Assembly (NCBI RefSeq): GCF_902713615.1
Contig: NC_052154.1
Coordinates: 137,929,263-137,993,262 of the forward strand
Length of the DNA stretch: 64,000 nt
Reading direction: 5' to 3'
DNA from: Scyliorhinus canicula
Lineage: Eukaryota
Under the pieces are notes generated by a model. The model was not told the DNA's origin. It searched no databases and saw nothing but the letters and a program-made list of their open reading frames with translations. Both the position numbers and the translations under genes were made by a program. Of this stretch, positions 41,761 through 51,649 are shown one piece after another (the stretch's first letter is position 1; every line of letters begins with the position of its first letter).

Positions 41761-41835
41761 TTGGCAGCACCACCAGGAATGGTGACTTCTGCTGGTAATG
41801 CTCTGAGGACTTCATCATGAATTGTCATTGGATCC

Positions 41836-42783
41836 TGTAGCCATGCTGGCCACGCAAAATGGACACTGAGCCAAACTAAAATGGAAGACTGCTGGGAAAC
41901 AGACAGTTTAGCCAGAACAGCAGTCTGCAAAGAGCAGTTTGCATTCTGCAGCAGCAGAAACCAGTTTGGGCTCAGGTGAAAAGACCTTAGCTAGGTGCAA
42001 ATGGCAAAACGCTTTGCATGCTAATGAGGCCATCAGACTTGAACACCCACACAATAGATACATTTGGTTCTGAATGGACACATTCTAATCAAGACCCAGA
42101 CATCGAGGCACCAGAAACCTCCAAACAAAAGGACATAAGAAACGCCCCCTCCATCACGGAGACCCCCTCGCATTGGGGAATTAATCCAGTATCGATAAGA
42201 AATTGATCCAATAGGTAGAGCCCGCCCGAGAAGAGGGAAGGACAATGGAACCCCTATAAAAGATAGGGACCTCGTGTTGTCCGGTCTGTTAAACCCGTGC
42301 TCCGGCTCCGACTGACATCGCGCATCCTGACTCCAGCCGTTGAGCACCAGCCGCCGAAACCGTAAGTTCAACGCTCGCTACGCGATCCAAGCCCACTAGA
42401 CTCCCAAGTACCGGAACGCTTGCTGAAGGCTGCAGACAAAACCAGGACGAAGGCCTCGTTCTCTGACCTTGCCTGTTCCTGTTAGATAAGTATTCTGCTT
42501 GCTTAAGTTTAGTTATAGCTTAGTCTCTTAGTGTGTGCATGAGTATTTATTATAACTGTATAATAAATATTGATCGTTTGAACTTTACTAATCGGTGTAT
42601 CGTCTTTATTACTTTGAACTTGACCTTGGAATACTTGTGACGTTGCCTATACGGCAACTGGCGACTCCAGAGCTAAATAATTACATAGAACAGAGCCTAG
42701 CAGTGTTAAGCACACGTCGAACTCGGAGGCGTGTTAATACACTCCAATAAACGCGTTTTACGCCCATAGTAAAACGTGCAACA
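41836..42783 (+). repeat. 5' LTR (948 bp)
   Basis: TGTAGCC...GTGCAACA; repeated 8866 bp downstream; ORF-track translations inside both LTRs are identical. Confidence 0.97.
42208..42261 (+). promoter_or_regulatory. LTR U3 core promoter
   Basis: CCAAT 42208-42212, GC box CCCGCCC 42221-42227, TATAAAA 42255-42261 in canonical order. Confidence 0.75.
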
Positions 42784-42788
42784 TTTAG

Positions 42789-42806
42789 TGGCGACTCTGG
42801 TGGGAC
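42789..42806 (+). promoter_or_regulatory. Primer-binding site, tRNA-Arg(UCU)
   Basis: TGGCGACTCTGGTGGGAC is the reverse complement of GTCCCACCAGAGTCGCCA, the 3' end of vertebrate tRNA-Arg-TCT as I recall it; starts 5 nt after the LTR. Confidence 0.85.
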
Positions 42807-43102
42807 CCTGTTGTAAGTGGAAACACCACAGTGTCCAGGACCCTGAAATTTGAATTGGAACTCCAAATTGCAGAGAAAGAAAGAGATCACAAGTATTCAA
42901 GGTGTTCAAAATAATAAGCGAAATTCGGAAGTGTGTTTTAGTGCATGCGTACTAACAGGGCTGTAAGGTAAAACTGAAAGCTTTTTGTTGCGACAAACTT
43001 TCGGTAGTTTTGTTAACGGAAAATAGCGTAAGCCGTACCCTTTTTTCGAAACACCACCCCAGCAACCCCCTGTTCCAAATTATAAAAAGAGAGTCAGAGG
43101 AA

Positions 43103-44851
43103 ATGGCCATGCAGGCAATGGAACGTCTGATGGATCCAGCAAAGTTTGTGGTCGCAGCGACCAGCAGCAGTAGCAGGGTAGGCCAGTGTCCCACGTGGGA
43201 GCTGGAACTCCGCAAATATCTGCAGGGAAAGGGATGGCCCCTTTGGAAAGAGTTTTGTGCAAATGAGGAGACAGGTCCCGGGAGTATAGGTCATACTTGG
43301 TGGGAGAACCTCTCTCAAATACACAAAAAGAGTTTAGGTAAAGCACGCAAGCCGATGGCGATTGTGTCCTGCTTGGCACAGTTGCGAGGCGCAGAGGAGG
43401 TCATCAGGACGCTCCGGACAGATTTAGAGGAAAGGAACCGAATGAGTAAGGTCGATGTCAGGGACATCGAGAAAGAAAACCTGGAATTAAAAGGGAAGTT
43501 GGCAGAGAAGGGTAGAGAGGTGGATGATGCCAAGAGGGCTCACCAGTCTTGTCTAGCTCATCTGAACAGTTCCCAGACCCAGTATGAGAAAGCCTATCAG
43601 GACGTGCAACGTGCCGTTCTGATAAGACAGGAATCGGAAAAGCAGGTGGAGGCATTGCAGAGGCAATGTTCCGATCTCAAAGCAGCTTTGAGAGCACTCC
43701 ATGCTGCAACAACCGAACAAAGACAAAGCACAGTTGACCACGCGAAATGCAGGAAACAGATTGCGGAACTGCAATCTCTGCTTTCGGTGCAGAATGGCTT
43801 CCAAAGCACCTTTGGAGCTCAGTTAGATGGGGAAAATGCCCCAGATTGGCAGGAATTAAGCGAGACAGCGCAGCGTTATGTTCAGGGAACATGTGCGCCA
43901 GCAGCTCAGCAGAAACGACAGGCACCCCAACCCCCCACAGCTCAGACCATAACCGCACCCATGAATCCCGTAACCACGCAGAGGAAAGCCGAATCAGAAG
44001 GCGCCCCAGACATAACTTACACCACCCCTTTAACAGTAACCCAGTTAAGGGACGCTTGTGAAAAGATCACTCCGTTCCTCCCCACCGCAGACCCCCACCA
44101 GTTTTTCGCTAAAGTAAAACAGCAGGCTACCATGTACGGCCTGGATGAGAGAGAGCAGGTTAAGCTCACCGTGCTGAGCTTAGACCAGAGCGTAGTAGCA
44201 GCCCTCCCCGACCCACAGAACGTGGCAGGAGGCAGCCTAGAGGAGATGCACACTGCCATTTTAGATGCCATCGGGTACAATAGAGGTGACCCCGTAGAAG
44301 GATTGAATAAGTGCAGGCAGAAGAGATCCGAACACCCCACAGCATTCGCAGGAAGGCTGTGGATTCATTTCAGCGCAGTTTTCGGACAGCTAGATAGAGC
44401 GCATTTAACCCGCGAAAACATGGTTAAGTGGACGCGCACAATTATCTCACACGCAACAGAAGCAGGACAGAGCGCTTGCAATAGCTACGACCCCTCAGAA
44501 GAGGCCCATAACGAAAAATGGGTCCTGAAAAGATTGTCCCGCGCTTGGGAGCAATCGCTTCAGGCAAAAGGAAAAGTTAGATCCCCAGAAGAGGCTCAGG
44601 CTGCTGCAGATATCCAAGCAGTCAGAGAGCACCAGAAGCCCGCATGGGTAAATGAAGGCAAGAGCAGCCCTCAACAGAAAGGACAGGAATGCTATAACTG
44701 TGGACAGTTAGGGCATTGGGCAAAAGAATGCCAAGCACCCCAGCGATCTCAGAGAGGCCAGCAGACAGGCACTCTGAACCGCAACAAAGCAAAACCCATC
44801 CACAATGTAGCAGTACAGTCAGGACCCACCAATGTGGACGAGACGAACTGA
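43103..44851 (+). CDS. gag: Gag polyprotein (582 aa from first ATG)
   Basis: Strong Kozak gaaATGg; long heptad coiled coil; MHR-like QKRSEHPTAFAGRLW; zinc knuckle CYNCGQLGHWAKEC. Confidence 0.92.
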   Translation: MAMQAMERLMDPAKFVVAATSSSSRVGQCPTWELELRKYLQGKGWPLWKEFCANEETGPGSIGHTWWENLSQIHKKSLGKARKPMAIVSCLAQLRGAEEVIRTLRTDLEERNRMSKVDVRDIEKENLELKGKLAEKGREVDDAKRAHQSCLAHLNSSQTQYEKAYQDVQRAVLIRQESEKQVEALQRQCSDLKAALRALHAATTEQRQSTVDHAKCRKQIAELQSLLSVQNGFQSTFGAQLDGENAPDWQELSETAQRYVQGTCAPAAQQKRQAPQPPTAQTITAPMNPVTTQRKAESEGAPDITYTTPLTVTQLRDACEKITPFLPTADPHQFFAKVKQQATMYGLDEREQVKLTVLSLDQSVVAALPDPQNVAGGSLEEMHTAILDAIGYNRGDPVEGLNKCRQKRSEHPTAFAGRLWIHFSAVFGQLDRAHLTRENMVKWTRTIISHATEAGQSACNSYDPSEEAHNEKWVLKRLSRAWEQSLQAKGKVRSPEEAQAAADIQAVREHQKPAWVNEGKSSPQQKGQECYNCGQLGHWAKECQAPQRSQRGQQTGTLNRNKAKPIHNVAVQSGPTNVDETN

Positions 44852-47800
44852 CGGTGTTCGGGCTCCCCCACTTGGGTCTGTGACACACTATGGGACTCAT
44901 CAGGGAGGCCCGTAGTCACGGCAAAAGTCAAAGGGAAGCCCATAGAGTTACTGTGGGACACAGGAGGATCCCGCACCACCATTAACTCCACAACCACGGC
45001 ACACGCAGACACGTGGCCGACCACCTCCACCATCACACTTAGCGGGTTCACCGGACACTCGCAGCAGGGATATATCACAGCACCCGTAGCGATCCAGCTA
45101 GGGAACATTAGCACAAGGCACCCCGTAGTTTTAGTAAATCTTCCCCGGACAGCAGAGCACATCCTGGGGATAGATTTTATGAACGCTCATAGCTTGTCAT
45201 TCGACCCAGTGAACCAGTGTGTCTGGCGAATGGCAAGATCAGACAGAGCCCCAGCCACCCTCACAGTAGGAGACTACGCTAATCGGATTAGCGCAGTGGG
45301 AGAGTACTCATTCGACCTGACTACACTCCACACCGACCGACAAATTAAGGCCCTAGTAAACAAACACAGGACAGCATTTGCAAGTCACCGTCATGACTGT
45401 GGTAGAATGACTGGACAAGTTCATGTTACCGGACAGGACCCCCGACCGCAAAAGCAGTATAGATTTCCCCTCGAGGCAGAGGTGGAAACAGAAAAGGTTA
45501 TAGGCAGCTTGTTGGACCAAGGTGTACTGAGAACGGTAGCCTCCACCAACAATGCCCCTATTTGGCCAGTGAGGAAGCCCGATGGATCATGGCGTCTGAC
45601 CATCGATTATCGGGAACTCAATAAAGTAACCCCCGCAGTAGCCCCAACGGTAGCTACTAGTCCCGAGACCATGCTCAAGCAGGGTCTCAACGCCAAGTAC
45701 TTCACGGTATTGGACATCAGTAATGGATTCTGGTCAATACCATTGGCAAAAGCGTGCCAATACAAATTCGCATTCACTTTTAAAACACAGCAGTACACGT
45801 GGACATGCCTCCCACAAGGATTCCACAATTCACCCTCCATTTTCCACCGACAGCTGGCAAGTGGATTAGAGAAATTTTCCCGACCCGAATGTCTGGTACA
45901 GTATGTAGACGACCTACTACTGCAGACAGACACAAAGGCAGAGCACATTTCGCTTCTGGCCGAACTCCTGGAACTCTTAACTGAAATTGGCTGTAAAGTT
46001 AACCCGAAAAAGGCCCAAATATTGGAAAGTAAAGTGATGTATTTGGGATCAGTCATCACGCACGGCAAACGCGAGATCGAATTCAAGAGAATTGATTCGA
46101 TTGTCAAATTGCCCCTTCCCCAGAATGTTTCAGCCCTCCGGTCGTTTTTAGGACTGGTTGGCTATTGTCGGAACCACATAGACGGATTCGCGACAAAAGC
46201 CGCCCCACTTTCAGACCTCCTTAAGAAAGGAGCCCCCTGGGAATGGCTTCCGCAGCATACAGGCGCTGTGGAAGAGTTGAAACGAGCCCTTAGTGCAGCA
46301 CCCGCGCTGCTAGTCCCCGACCAACTTTCACCGTACGCAATAGAGGTAGCGAGCACCGATCTGACCCTCTCGGCCGTGTTGCTTCAGGAACGGCACGAGC
46401 AGCTAAGACCAGTGGCTTATGCCTCCCGACTGTTAGACCCAGTAGAACAAGGATTTTCAGCCTGTGAGAGGCACCTCCTTGCTGTCTTCTGGGCAGTACA
46501 GTATTTCTCATACATCACCGGACTAAACCCCATCACCATTCTAACCGAACATACACCCACACAGCTACTACTAGACGGTCGACTGAAGGACGGTTCAGTT
46601 AGCCAGATTAGGGCAGCTAGGTGGACCCTACTTTTACAAGGACGGGACATTACAGTGAAACGGACACGCACCCACACATACTTAGCAGACAACCTCCAAT
46701 ACCCCGGACAGCCCCATGACTGTGAAATTGTAGCTCCCCTGCATAACACAGGACCCTTTTTAGCAAAAACACCCCCCAGGAAGATAGGGAACCCGAAACA
46801 AAGCCCCCAGCCCACAGACACGTGTGGACCCTTGAGGATTTATGTAGACGGTTCCTCCACAGTTTTAAATGGTGAGCGTATCACAGGATGCGGCATCTAC
46901 GTAGAGGACGCGCAGGGGCGCGCTCTCGAAGAGATAGCTCTTAAGTTACCAGGTCACTTAGGCGCGCAGGCAGCAGAGCTAGCAGCCATAGCGTACATAG
47001 TGGACCACCCCGATTCTTTCCCCAGCCCAGCAGACATATATTCAGACAGCTTATATGTCTGCAATAGCCTAACAGATTTTCTGCCCCTGTGGAGGACACG
47101 AGGTTTTGTCTCCGCAGACGGAAAACCCCTTCCATCAGCCCCTTTACTCCAGCATATCCTAGAGAAAGCGAAGGACAGGACCTTCGGCATCATAAAAGTT
47201 CGCAGCCACCATAGGTCATCACCCCCTGGGAATGTAAAAGCCGACGCATTGGCTAAGGCAGGTTCCAGGAGAGGACACTTATGGAACCCCCCAGCTAGCG
47301 CACCAGCTAGCGCCCCTGTGAGCGCAGTCCAAGTCTCACAGACTGATATTAAAGATCTCGTGGCAGCACAGAAACAGGACGGAGACCTCAGGGAGGTTTT
47401 CAAGGGAAATTTTGTGCCTGCGTACGAGCACTTTAAACACGCACTGACCACACATGAGGGTGTGATCATTAAAGACCAACTTTATGTGGTCCCACAGCAG
47501 GACAGGAATCAGATGATTGCCTTGTTCCATGACGGACACGGGCATCAGGGAATTGATGCAACAACGAGGCACCTCAGGCAACTCTGCTGGTGGCCTAATC
47601 TCAGGAATGATGTAACGCACTACATAGAGAATTGCCTGATTTGTGCTCAGAATAACCCGGAGAGGTATTCTAAGAAGGCACAACTTCGGCATACTCGCCC
47701 AGTTAACGGCCCTTGGACAAACCTCCAGATCGACTTTATAGGTCCATTGCCCCCTTGTCGGAATGGCTATAAATACGTTCTGGTGGTGATAGATACCTTT

Positions 47801-49078
47801 ACCAAATGGGTAGAGGCATTTCCCTCACGAACAAACACAGCTAAGACAGCTGCAAAGATCCTGACCCACCACATCTTCACGAGATGGGGTTTACCCCGAA
47901 GTATCGATTCGGACCAGGGATCTCACTTTACAGGACGGGTCATGAGGAACGTCCTGACAATATTCGGAATCAAACAGAACTTCCATATTGCGTATCATCC
48001 ACAGTCCAGCGGGATTGTGGAGCGCATGAATCGGACCCTAAAAACTACCCTTAGGAAAATGGTTCAAGAGAACAATTCCACATGGGATTCAGTGCTCCCC
48101 TTTGCACTTATGTTCATAAGGAACACTGTCTCCACATCGACAGGATACACACCACACACACTCATGACCGGACGCCCTATGAAAGGTACAGAATTCCTTT
48201 TAGGACTGGACATGACAAGCCCCGAAGTGACGGCCCTCACACATGAAAAGGCAGTTAAAGATCTAGTTGAGACTGTGAGGTCTGCACAGCTCGCAGCCGC
48301 AGTCCAGCTAGGGAAACGCCGACAGCAACGTACTGCCTGTTTCAATAAGACCGTACACACCACAGAATTCCAGGTTGGGCAACAGGTAATGTTATCTGTT
48401 TATAACCCCAGCAGTTTTTTGGCTCCAAAATATTCCGGTCCCTACTCAATTTCGGACAAAATTAGCCCCTCCGTTTACAGAATAAAGTATCCTAATGGGA
48501 AGACCGCGTGGTTCCATATAAACCAGTTAAAGGCATATGGAACACAGGCCAACCATGCTCACCATGTCCTGCTGGATGCAGCAGAACACTTCACCCCGCC
48601 CACCAGAAACACTTTTCCACCATCCCCCTCACAGACCAGTTCATCAACGGACTCGCCCACGACTCCGCCCACAGACCACTACAGACCACGCCCCGACACG
48701 CCCACAAGCTGCCACAGCAGAGACAGCAGGACTGACACTGACTCTGAAGACAGCGACAGCACACAGCCATACAGCCCACACTGCACCAACTACGACCCCG
48801 ACTCCAGTGACCCCATGGAAGTCACCTACCTCAAATATCCAGAACCACCACCCGACCCCGACTACCCCGACAACACACTCGACGCTACACAATGGCACAG
48901 GGACAATTCCTACAGACTTGTCCGCAATGATGAAAGTGACCCCCGGTCACACAACTCCAAAATAGCATGCCTGATCCACACAAGGGTGTGGGATCCGGGA
49001 GAGCAGGACGACACGGTGTCTGACTCCCGACACGGCAACCCCTTTGTGACCCTGTTCACAGAGGCAGAATCAAAGTGA
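44852..49078 (+). CDS. pol: Pro-Pol (protease, RT, tether RNase H, RNase H, integrase), in frame with gag via UGA readthrough
   Basis: Frame is open from the gag stop: LLWDTGGSRT and ILGIDF (protease); LPQGFHNSP and YVDD (RT); YVDGS/AELAA/YSDS/KAD (RNase H); HHCC and D,D35E, GPY (integrase). The ORF track starts it late, at 45179. Confidence 0.95.
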   Translation, partial: RCSGSPTWVCDTLWDSSGRPVVTAKVKGKPIELLWDTGGSRTTINSTTTAHADTWPTTSTITLSGFTGHSQQGYITAPVAIQLGNISTRHPVVLVNLPRTAEHILGIDFMNAHSLSFDPVNQCVWRMARSDRAPATLTVGDYANRISAVGEYSFDLTTLHTDRQIKALVNKHRTAFASHRHDCGRMTGQVHVTGQDPRPQKQYRFPLEAEVETEKVIGSLLDQGVLRTVASTNNAPIWPVRKPDGSWRLTIDYRELNKVTPAVAPTVATSPETMLKQGLNAKYFTVLDISNGFWSIPLAKACQYKFAFTFKTQQYTWTCLPQGFHNSPSIFHRQLASGLEKFSRPECLVQYVDDLLLQTDTKAEHISLLAELLELLTEIGCKVNPKKAQILESKVMYLGSVITHGKREIEFKRIDSIVKLPLPQNVSALRSFLGLVGYCRNHIDGFATKAAPLSDLLKKGAPWEWLPQHTGAVEELKRALSAAPALLVPDQLSPYAIEVASTDLTLSAVLLQERHEQLRPVAYASRLLDPVEQGFSACERHLLAVFWAVQYFSYITGLNPITILTEHTPTQLLLDGRLKDGSVSQIRAARWTLLLQGRDITVKRTRTHTYLADNLQYPGQPHDCEIVAPLHNTGPFLAKTPPRKIGNPKQSPQPTDTCGPLRIYVDGSSTVLNGERITGCGIYVEDAQGRALEEIALKLPGHLGAQAAELAAIAYIVDHPDSFPSPADIYSDSLYVCNSLTDFLPLWRTRGFVSADGKPLPSAPLLQHILEKAKDRTFGIIKVRSHHRSSPPGNVKADALAKAGSRRGHLWNPPASAPASAPVSAVQVSQTDIKDLVAAQKQDGDLREVFKGNFVPAYEHFKHALTTHEGVIIKDQLYVVPQQDRNQMIALFHDGHGHQGIDATTRHLRQLCWWPNLRNDVTHYIENCLICAQNNPERYSKKAQLRHTRPVNGPWTNLQIDFIGPLPPCRNGYKYVLVVIDTFTKWVEAFPSRTNTAKTAAKILTHHIFTRWGLPRSIDSDQGSHFTGRVMRNVLTIFGIKQNFHIAYHPQSSGIVERMNRTLKTTLRKMVQENNSTWDSVLPFALMFIRNTVSTSTGYTPHTLMTGRPMKGTEFLLGLDMTSPEVTALTHEKAVKDLVETVRSAQLAAAVQLGKRRQQRTACFNKTVHTTEFQVGQQVMLSVYNPSSFLAPKYSGPYSISDKISPSVYRIKYPNGKTAWFHINQLKAYGTQANHAHHVLLDAAEHFTPPTRNTFPPSPSQTSSSTDSPTTPPTDHYRPRPDTPTSCHSRDSRTDTDSEDSDSTQPYSPHCTNYDPDSSDPMEVTYLKYPEPPPDPDYPDNTLDATQWHRDNSYRLVRNDESDPRSHNSKIACLIHTRVWDPGEQDDTVSDSRHGNPFVTLFTEAESK

Positions 49079-50017
49079 GGTGTCCAGATGATGTAAGATA
49101 GGAATCGTTTGAGGGAAACGATGTCCTTTCTGATGGAACCTGCACGTATGTTTGTCTTCGTTTTATGTTTGTTTGTCTCAGGATTGTACATTGTTCAGCT
49201 GGAGGATGGACATCTTCTTTTCAGCTGAAAAGATTGTGACCACCTCACATACACGTTAGCTTGTCCGCAGATACTTTTGAGAACTTCGGTTTGATTGGAG
49301 ATCTTTTCCAAAGTTGTAAGGCCACACGCCAAATAGTTTATCTGCAGATATCTCTGAGAACTTCAGTGATGTCCTCAGTTGGAGCATCTTGGCTCCCTTG
49401 GTTTTTTAGGTGCCCCTCTATTCGGCGAAATAGAGGCTGCAAGTCATGGTCAACACATTCGTACCCGTTTCTTTCCAGGTTACTCAGGCAGTGGACAAAC
49501 GGCACTGAGGACCCGCCCTGTCTGAGAACCAACCCTTGGTCAGCCAAGCTCGGGTATGGCACAGCACGCCCTACCCGGGGATCCCATCCAACTCGTACCC
49601 GTAGCGGCCCATACGCAACTCATTCGGATGTTTATTTCCAAGTTTGTTTTCATTTTAGGTTAGGTAGCCCTTCGGCCACCATCCCACATGCTATTTACAT
49701 CCGGGAACATTCGGATGGTAAATCAGCAAAGCCTGCGAGACGGCTCGCAGAAGGAAGGATTGTTAGGTGTATGCTGGTCTTTAAATTCGCTTTTTGAAAA
49801 AAAAAAAAGAGGGGAGTCACAGGGTGTGACTTAGCCAGTCATTTTAAAGGGTCAATTGGGTTTTGAAAGACAGATGCACTAACAAGTAAAGGTCTTAAGC
49901 TGTGTATTGACAGATACTGTGCTTGATCCCAAAGGTTTCAAAGGACGAGACAGAGGTCGAAGCCAGGATTGTCAATACCGGAGGAAGAAGGAAGAGAAAG
50001 AAGAAGAACAACAAAAG

Positions 50018-50371
50018 ATGATGGAAGCCCACTTATTACTGTTTAATGTCATATGTATATGTGTGGAAACAAGACACGTTTCCCCCACAACCCCCACCGT
50101 AAATGTTAGTACAACAAACCCCCAGTGCTCAGCTCTGATCAGCGAGGTTCAGACCTGGTGTACTAAATTCATGACGTGGTACTCCATGTCCTACATAATC
50201 GAATCACTGTTGGTGATCGCGATCCTCATCATCCTAGTGCAGACCCTCAGGTTGAGGAAATGGAAGAGGAGAGCCTCTCGTTCCAGCACCTCACCCATCT
50301 ATAGAGTGCAATCCCCCATCTTCGGATTCCACCAAACCCCTCAACCCCTCACTGATTACAACACTCTGTAA
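50018..50371 (+). CDS. Small single-pass membrane protein (117 aa) in the env position
   Basis: ATGATGG good Kozak; hydrophobic N-terminus, S/T/P stalk with NVS sequon, Cys pair, TM YIIESLLVIAILIILVQTL, basic RLRKWKRR, C-terminal YNTL. Confidence 0.7.
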   Translation: MMEAHLLLFNVICICVETRHVSPTTPTVNVSTTNPQCSALISEVQTWCTKFMTWYSMSYIIESLLVIAILIILVQTLRLRKWKRRASRSSTSPIYRVQSPIFGFHQTPQPLTDYNTL

Positions 50372-50691
50372 ATAAAATTCAGCCATGTATTATATTGTTC
50401 CATACTCGACTGCCGAGTTGGGAAGTGTGATGTTGTGGTGTGAATGGTTAAGGTTTTAGAGTGATTAAATGTTTAAGTTAAGGTTAAGGTTAATAGTGAT
50501 AGGTAGAGGTTCCCAGTTGTAGTAATGCATGTCCCTTTGACATAGGGCCAAGTAGAAATGTTAGTTAAAATTTTTTTTCTCTTCTTCCCATAGTTTAGAA
50601 CAGAGTAGAACAGGAACTGGCAAGAGGTCAGAACACAAGGAAGGCAAAGTACATAGGTGATCCTTCACAATAGTATGATTGTGAGGATCAC

Positions 50692-50701
50692 AAGGAGGGA
50701 A
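50692..50701 (+). promoter_or_regulatory. 3' polypurine tract
   Basis: AAGGAGGGAA directly abutting the 3' LTR. Confidence 0.8.
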
Positions 50702-51649
50702 TGTAGCCATGCTGGCCACGCAAAATGGACACTGAGCCAAACTAAAATGGAAGACTGCTGGGAAACAGACAGTTTAGCCAGAACAGCAGTCTGCAAAGAG
50801 CAGTTTGCATTCTGCAGCAGCAGAAACCAGTTTGGGCTCAGGTGAAAAGACCTTAGCTAGGTGCAAATGGCAAAACGCTTTGCATGCTAATGAGGCCATC
50901 AGACTTGAACACCCACACAATAGATACATTTGGTTCTGAATGGACACATTCTAATCAAGACCCAGACATCGAGGCACCAGAAACCTCCAAACAAAAGGAC
51001 ATAAGAAACGCCCCCTCCATCACGGAGACCCCCTCGCATTGGGGAATTAATCCAGTATCGATAAGAAATTGATCCAATAGGTAGAGCCCGCCCGAGAAGA
51101 GGGAAGGACAATGGAACCCCTATAAAAGATAGGGACCTCGTGTTGTCCGGTCTGTTAAACCCGTGCTCCGGCTCCGACTGACATCGCGCATCCTGACTCC
51201 AGCCGTTGAGCACCAGCCGCCGAAACCGTAAGTTCAACGCTCGCTACGCGATCCAAGCCCACTAGACTCCCAAGTACCGGAACGCTTGCTGAAGGCTGCA
51301 GACAAAACCAGGACGAAGGCCTCGTTCTCTGACCTTGCCTGTTCCTGTTAGATAAGTATTCTGCTTGCTTAAGTTTAGTTATAGCTTAGTCTCTTAGTGT
51401 GTGCATGAGTATTTATTATAACTGTATAATAAATATTGATCGTTTGAACTTTACTAATCGGTGTATCGTCTTTATTACTTTGAACTTGACCTTGGAATAC
51501 TTGTGACGTTGCCTATACGGCAACTGGCGACTCCAGAGCTAAATAATTACATAGAACAGAGCCTAGCAGTGTTAAGCACACGTCGAACTCGGAGGCGTGT
51601 TAATACACTCCAATAAACGCGTTTTACGCCCATAGTAAAACGTGCAACA
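50702..51649 (+). repeat. 3' LTR (948 bp)
   Basis: Same sequence as the 5' LTR; followed by ATCC. Confidence 0.97.
51428..51433 (+). terminator. LTR polyadenylation signal
   Basis: AATAAA followed by T/GT-rich sequence; a second AATAAA lies near the LTR end. Confidence 0.65.

Follow-up and report, generated by a model that had tools for sequence, protein, structure and literature searches.

An intact retrovirus-like provirus of the catshark Scyliorhinus canicula carries, in the env position, an open reading frame (ORF) of 117 amino acids (aa) that is under purifying selection across families of the element, although the fusion machinery is gone. This ORF is very probably a mini-Env, an internally deleted env, as alignment with env-bearing relatives in the same genome indicates. 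Taken as a whole, the data are best explained, with a probability of about 0.6, by a mini-Env retained in a non-fusogenic role, in which it would anchor the particles of the element at a membrane and act as an adaptor in their trafficking. The window analysed is a stretch of 64,000 nucleotides (nt) of contig NC_052154.1 (positions 137,929,263 to 137,993,262, forward strand). The first-pass annotation of this window had described a vertebrate retrovirus-like element that is intact but has a small membrane protein where env should lie, and this description stands. It had also held that env was replaced by a gene resembling the FAST fusogens, and this is not so, as the env-bearing relatives described below show the ORF to consist of the joined ends of env.

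Structure of the Provirus

The provirus carrying the ORF is complete and intact (41836-51649, 9.8 kb), and its two LTRs are identical over 948 bp (Table 1). A 26-base motif from inside the ORF occurred 1,061 times in the 4.2-Gb genome compared with 0 occurrences of the control. The element family has at least 1,061 copies and is very recently active. Young copies have near-identical internal regions and U3 regions of several types (LTR U3; loci L031-L050), and there are tandem copies with one common LTR, such as C3:20729625 and C3:20738491, which lie 8,866 apart.

Table 1. Features of the provirus and of the 117-aa ORF (positions in the window).
Feature	Position	Strand	Remarks
Target duplication ATCC, 4 bp	41832-41835		just before the 5' LTR; ATCC again after the 3' LTR
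5' LTR, TG...CA, 948 bp	41836..42783	+	
Primer binding site	42789..42806	+	complementary to the tRNA-Arg(UCU) 3' end
gag, 582 aa	43103..44851	+	coiled-coil-like N-half, one CCHC zinc knuckle
pro-pol frame, 1408 codons	44852..49078	+	protease, RT, tether, RNase H, integrase
Non-coding block	49480..49630	+	aligns in about 16/21 older-family loci at about 80% identity
Short hairpin, 3' of A-run and purine tract	49815..49831	+	similar sequence in older families
Splice-acceptor-like motif	49918..49934	+	derived from env-bearing relatives; start of the putative exon at 49935
117-aa ORF, very probably a mini-Env	50018..50371	+	env position
Predicted signal peptide, aa 1 to about 18	50018..50071	+	hydropathy and conservation
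Most constrained part, aa 46-88	50153..50281	+	membrane-proximal stretch, TM and basic patch
Cytoplasmic tail motif, aa 94-103	50297..50326	+	Y-x-V-x-x-P-x-F-G type
Polypurine tract	50692..50701	+	
3' LTR	50702..51649	+	same sequence as the 5' LTR

Gag has no Gly2, and its gene ends in a TGA in frame with pol, so that gag and pol are open across this single stop codon. The in-frame TGA occupies 44849-44851; gamma-type readthrough junctions usually have TAG. Pol contains a dual RNase H (tether and RNase H). The tRNA-Arg(UCU) match of the primer binding site was read by eye from tRNA-like loci with a TCT anticodon loop, two of them ending in CCA, and ARAGORN made no call on these loci. Two loci (L269 and L270) hold the 3' halves of mature tRNA-Arg followed by CCA and are probably tailless retropseudogenes. 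Transcribed copies of the element often have three linked changes in the primer site (42798-42801), which presumably match a second tRNA-Arg(UCU) isodecoder and would be consistent with priming by either tRNA.

The non-coding block between pol and the ORF aligned in more older-family loci than the ORF did. It had a folding z of about -2 in a crude shuffle and no match in Rfam. It is probably a cis-acting RNA element and a candidate for an export or packaging element. The A-run, purine tract and hairpin at 49800-49831, kept in older families, resemble a second polypurine tract.

Classification of the Element

The nearest relatives of Pol were frog and coelacanth proteins with 43-50% identity, and not the snakehead retrovirus (SnRV). 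The reverse transcriptase (RT) grouped with SnRV Pol (P0031) in a 34-row cluster with full support (SH-aLRT 100) in a quick version of the tree that was built without named gamma, epsilon or foamy references and in which the element was not sister to SnRV. The RT reads C-L-P-Q-G-F like that of SnRV, whereas lokiretrovirus RTs read R-C-P-F-G-Y by eye in the supplement of PMC7947760. These comparisons suggest that the element is SnRV-related. The likeness to the SnRV clade (SnRV, clade Huo and elephant-shark CmiERV lineage I) includes the tether and RNase H, and the Gag without a myristoylation signal and with one zinc knuckle is also found in SnRV according to PMC2717909. SnRV differs in having, as described in PMC12193657, a complete Env, whose tail is 136 aa long, together with four accessory ORFs, while env is represented here by 117 aa. 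No viral contigs with the RT were found.

An assignment to the lokiretroviruses was considered and dropped, as the RT signature differs and there was no paramyxovirus-F-like PF00523 match. Lokiretroviruses do share the dual RNase H, and according to PMC7947760 their hosts are fish and amphibians; six cartilaginous-fish rows in the table of that paper are not marked as lokiretrovirus hosts.

Features of the 117-aa ORF

The ORF is open over its whole length where env should lie, in agreement with the first-pass annotation. The hydrophobic N-terminus (9-residue hydropathy peak of 2.8) is probably a signal peptide, and in relatives the hydrophobic leader ends in an LR-A-x-A-like sequence. An S/T/P-rich stalk bearing the N-glycan sequon N29-V-S, a single transmembrane (TM) helix (19-residue hydropathy peak of 2.3 at about residues 57-77) and a juxtamembrane basic patch (aa 78-88) are present as previously described. 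Two further motifs of that description held for the window ORF but not for its relatives. Cys residues are found at positions 13, 15, 37 and 48, and both members of the proposed loop C37-C48 are thus in place; however, among 10 full short forms the second ectodomain Cys was at the same place in two, at another spacing in two and absent in six. Similarly, the window ORF does end in a YxxL (YNTL), but this was seen in only 1 of 10 short-form rows. It is private to one subfamily, and a 113-aa subfamily with at least 150 copies does not have it.

Probable Origin of the ORF from env

A direct homologue search with the 117-aa ORF gave 0 matches at E 10, and a genome search with P0001 returned the young family only. 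A pattern excluding the codons of the young family gave 94 diverged RT loci. In the 3' regions of 40 diverged RT loci, a homologue of the ORF was located at the same place in 20, one of which is a young-family member, and the remaining 20 regions were incomplete or interrupted. In families C and D the form is longer, about 218 aa, with a six-Cys domain between the signal peptide and the stalk. A profile of 16 of these mid-size copies matched 9 proteins among 1.84 billion, and one of them (P0094) extends into further sequence. A genome search with P0094 identified an older env-bearing family with the same signal peptide and Cys domain, and the same gene is present in one genome in three sizes of about 630, 218 and 117 codons.

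In the env form, the Cys domain is followed by a furin-like R-V-K-R and a small-residue hydrophobic stretch resembling a fusion peptide, and then by heptad-like helices, a Cys-rich region, a Trp-rich stretch, the TM, the basic patch and the tail. The form at L236 spans about 1,890 nt or about 630 codons. Both the Cys-rich N-terminal domain and the TM/tail were matched in 7 of the 21 env-family loci, and the furin-like site, hydrophobic stretch and heptads were recognised by inspection at L225, L228, L229, L232, L235, L242 and L247. All of the env-bearing copies examined (21 loci) are broken, and their Gag N-termini were not recovered. The anatomy and position of the long form point to Env. No Pfam, PDB, Atlas or database match was obtained for the pieces of this form that were tried: the Cys-rich domain and env pieces gave nothing near the cut-off in Pfam and PDB, Atlas gave no usable match for the mid form or the env piece, and a search of longer proteins with the env piece retained 0 of 912 candidates. 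PF00523 matched neither the element nor the env pieces, and the PF00523 search of the genome, run without a positive control, was empty.

DNA alignment connects the three sizes. Mid-size L153 and env-bearing L236 share two blocks with 65% and 73% identity, spaced by about 120 nt in one locus and about 1,400 nt in the other, and short L138 is missing about 310 nt relative to L153. The mid form thus corresponds to the env form minus about 1.3 kb, and the short form to the mid form minus about 0.3 kb. At the protein level, the window ORF matched the mid form and the C-terminal piece of env with E values of 1e-14 and 5e-5, respectively, and the mid form matched the env piece with 3e-7. Identity between the window ORF and the env end is low (22%), and this link needs the mid form as a bridge. 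Because both ends align to env-bearing relatives, the ORF is read as the joined ends of env, a result that the first-pass annotation had itself named as counting against its reading. The furin site, the fusion peptide and most of both heptads are missing from the window ORF.

All three forms have the splice-acceptor motif, signal peptide, Trp-rich membrane-proximal stretch, TM, basic patch and tail motif, and the signal peptide, basic patch and tail motif are conserved across forms. The tail motif Y-x-V-x-x-P-x-F-G is common to the mid-size forms and one env-bearing copy. A conserved membrane-proximal pair is W-C in the short forms and W-W in the mid and env forms, and a Glu near the TM start is present in the short and mid forms and absent in the env form.

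The six-Cys domain (about 100 aa; L158:1462-2118 on the minus strand, and relatives) had no match in Pfam, PDB or Atlas; homologues are also found on four short ENA and JGI contigs. In an AlphaFold2 model of the 219-aa form (mean pLDDT 41), the TM alone was confident.

Direction of Change

The unrooted Pol tree placed the families in the order env, D, C, A, B, E, F, G and window. The opposite course to deletion would be that a small membrane gene is ancestral in this shark lineage and that the env-bearing family arose later by domain gain or by recombination with a relative that had env. The best root of the Pol tree (20 shark rows and 5 outgroups, with SnRV dropped) does lie at the window end, with short forms basal and the env family nested with mid family D. 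However, this maximum-likelihood root is not significant: the env-first order was 12 log-likelihood units worse and was not rejected (AU p 0.18, 5,000 replicates), and AU p values for the alternative roots were 0.18-0.30. The outgroups are remote and may be drawn to intact rows. Nearest-neighbour identity was 83% for the env family, 84-87% for D and C, 91% for A and B and 98% for the window family, and the env-bearing copies are among the oldest and most decayed. A simple age ladder nevertheless fits badly, because short families E and F (80%, five loci) appear equal in age to the env family. An Env is present in relatives such as SnRV (PMC12193657), and it is simpler to assume that two stretches were deleted in frame than that two were inserted between homologous ends. 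We regard an ancestral short form as improbable; deletion is the simpler reading, with the direction of change not fixed by the tree.

Selection on the ORF

Sixty copies were chosen by integrase identity alone. Copies share ancestry and p-values are indicative only, but the ORF was intact in 56 of the 60 compared with 10 of 60 for a neighbouring 142-aa control ORF at 49369 (p 5e-8), the distinct changes relative to the window ORF (46 synonymous and 49 non-synonymous) gave a pN/pS of 0.32 (p 2e-6), and indels were in frame in 7 of 12 cases within the ORF and in 17 of 138 in the flanks (p 5e-4). For aa 46-87, pN/pS was 0.11. Between the window ORF and seven copies with finite dS, dN/dS of aa 46-106 was 0.07-0.20, and two further copies were saturated at synonymous sites; relative to older families, the core of the ORF had a dN/dS of 0.15-0.20. 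Amino acids are kept (dN 0.06-0.47) although synonymous sites are near saturation (dS 0.9-3.2). In the copies examined, the ORF is mostly intact and does not evolve neutrally, and purifying selection acts on it across families.

These values bear on whether the ORF is a passive remnant or is kept for its RNA alone. The nearby non-coding block is conserved at the DNA level, and the 3' ORF region of SnRV is described in PMC12193657 as acting in cis, with the protein dispensable in culture. Retention of amino acids despite near-saturated synonymous sites, together with in-frame indels, argues against both readings; the passive reading is largely refuted by dN/dS, and we give it almost no weight.

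Comparison with FAST Proteins and sORF2

FAST proteins normally have no cleavable signal peptide, unlike the short, mid and env forms, which all have a hydrophobic leader as judged by hydropathy and conservation. The Gly2 of the FAST/sORF2 myristoylation motif was absent from the window ORF and every full-length relative (18 rows), and the cystine loop of the p10 type is not conserved here. Small size, a single TM and a juxtamembrane polybasic patch are as in FAST, and the patch is also found in the env-bearing relatives. As reported in PMC11952523, 10.1101/639070 and PMC12945298, FAST proteins and Drosophila MDG1 sORF2 likewise have about 100-120 aa, a short ectodomain, one TM and a juxtamembrane basic patch, in an element without a fusogenic Env. 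Besides lacking the myristoylation motif and conserved loop, the ORF is unlike both in its probable cleavable signal peptide, N-glycan stalk and demonstrable env origin. The TM and basic patch give no sign of convergence because they are Env-derived.

It is also conceivable that the Env stub now works as FAST or sORF2 do and passes capsids from cell to cell where cells are in contact, such as from soma to germ line. Size, an ectodomain of about 40 aa past the signal peptide, the single TM and the basic patch resemble those proteins (PMC11952523, PMC12945298); constraint is highest in a membrane-proximal stretch that is rich in Trp and looks amphipathic; selection of this strength requires a function; and no fusion in standard assays is reported for sORF2 itself (PMC11952523). 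This is nonetheless quite unlikely in our view, as the FAST marks above are missing, the leader, glycosylated stalk, TM and patch come from Env, and env-less ERVs can, according to PMC10435555, amplify by cis retrotransposition with gag and pol alone. If it were true, small cell-cell transfer proteins would have a traceable origin from a class I envelope, and the first vertebrate counterpart of insect sORF2 would have been found.

Proposed Function of the Mini-Env

Some non-fusogenic job for the element is probable. In the proposed mechanism, the env of an SnRV-related lineage would have lost its middle in two steps, from about 630 to about 218 and then to about 117 codons, with the splice acceptor, signal peptide, membrane-proximal stretch, TM, basic patch and tail kept through the shrinkage. 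The ORF would be made from a subgenomic RNA, and the signal peptide would take the protein into the ER as a small type I glycoprotein, perhaps a disulfide dimer via the one conserved ectodomain Cys. The basic patch and Tyr-containing tail may then keep capsids, or the Gag that is not myristoylated, at a particular membrane, where this would serve assembly, trafficking or retention, and the element would copy itself inside germ-line cells without infectious entry. That the job is specifically anchoring or trafficking of Gag or capsid is a tentative proposal, to which we give somewhat less than even odds.

The protein could instead be an accessory surface protein directed at the host or rival viruses, through receptor interference, antagonism of restriction factors or mimicry of immune adaptors. 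Where a receptor-binding domain would lie, the mid form keeps an N-terminal domain with six Cys, the TM Glu was gained in the short and mid forms, the short forms have a conserved Cys, and RNA over the ORF is abundant. The stretch Y-I-I-E-S-L-L may resemble the TM of FcR-gamma and CD3-zeta. However, the presumed receptor-binding domain has been lost from the window form, an ITAM is absent and the terminal YxxL lacks conservation. The Pfam matches, to K1 and adenovirus E3A, were weak only and far below the cut-off, and selection on a replicating multi-copy element favours a benefit in cis. We consider an accessory role unlikely.

Relation to Known Systems

Textbooks describe loss of Env as the way in which a retrovirus turns into an intracellular retrotransposon, and what is left of env is regarded as junk. 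IAP and MusD are env-less ERV superspreaders, and high copy number reportedly goes with loss of infectious Env in such elements; the catshark element resembles them in both respects. Suppressyn, Refrex-1 and Fv4 are truncated Env proteins co-opted by hosts and are similar in that an Env fragment without fusion function is kept by selection. They are single host loci that keep the receptor-binding SU, whereas here the element is multiplying and the membrane end is kept. The env remnants of Drosophila iERV revertants are described in PMC12992720 as frameshifted or decaying, while the remnant here has stayed in frame, with strong purifying selection on it in several families.

Env-deleted ERVs are already known; what had no counterpart in the literature searched is a vertebrate ERV that multiplies with a mini-Env shrunk in steps and kept by selection. 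A family of over a thousand young copies, along with several older families, retains an in-frame Env stub under strong selection, with intermediate and full-length env forms preserved in the same genome. Envelope remnants would then have a job other than virus entry, and the mini-Env would isolate a non-fusion job of the membrane end of Env that is testable with one 117-aa protein. Screens requiring an intact full-length env, such as that in PMC10435555, would miss such elements. Neither the small ORF of this element nor any mini-Env under selection in an ERV that multiplies was found described in a mainly open-access literature that did not include Repbase or the supplement of PMC10699275, a catshark ERV survey.

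Transcripts and Splice Signals

The branch point CACTAAC (49877-49883), TTGACAG (49907-49913) and a purine-rich run (49981-50017) that had been noted upstream of the ORF are all present. The acceptor proposed at 49913 was only partly upheld: its AG is found in 60 of 60 young copies, whereas mid-size and env-bearing relatives do not have it and keep instead the AG that corresponds to 49933-49934. The RNA joint at 49914 that the first acceptor would give was not seen in two raw-read runs, and no joint to either 49914 or 49935 was listed at a 5% threshold, at which many loose ends are not shown. A pattern search for spliced retrocopies from a candidate donor behind the primer binding site, run without a positive control, gave 0 matches.

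In the stranded poly(A) run, where reads come from the whole family and not from the window locus alone, sense depth was about 51 over the ORF compared with 1-11 over gag-pol, stepped from 19 to 75 near 49200 and remained at 35-75 from 49236 onward. The single-cell run had a similar step near 49200. This four-fold step was thus seen in two raw-read runs, in neither of which a splice joint accompanied it. One candidate acceptor is a pyrimidine-rich AG (49180-49181), for which 28 of 60 young copies have a match. From 49182 to the ORF start there are nine upstream ATGs. A loose read end at 49381 is a subfamily variant, and four others were not found among the loci fetched.

Two public gene models begin matching at the AG equivalent to 49933-49934. 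P0095, a public HEPACAM2-like gene model of another catshark, has at its end (residues of about 337-454) a stalk, TM and tail derived from the mini-Env, which suggests a host transcript spliced into the proviral acceptor.
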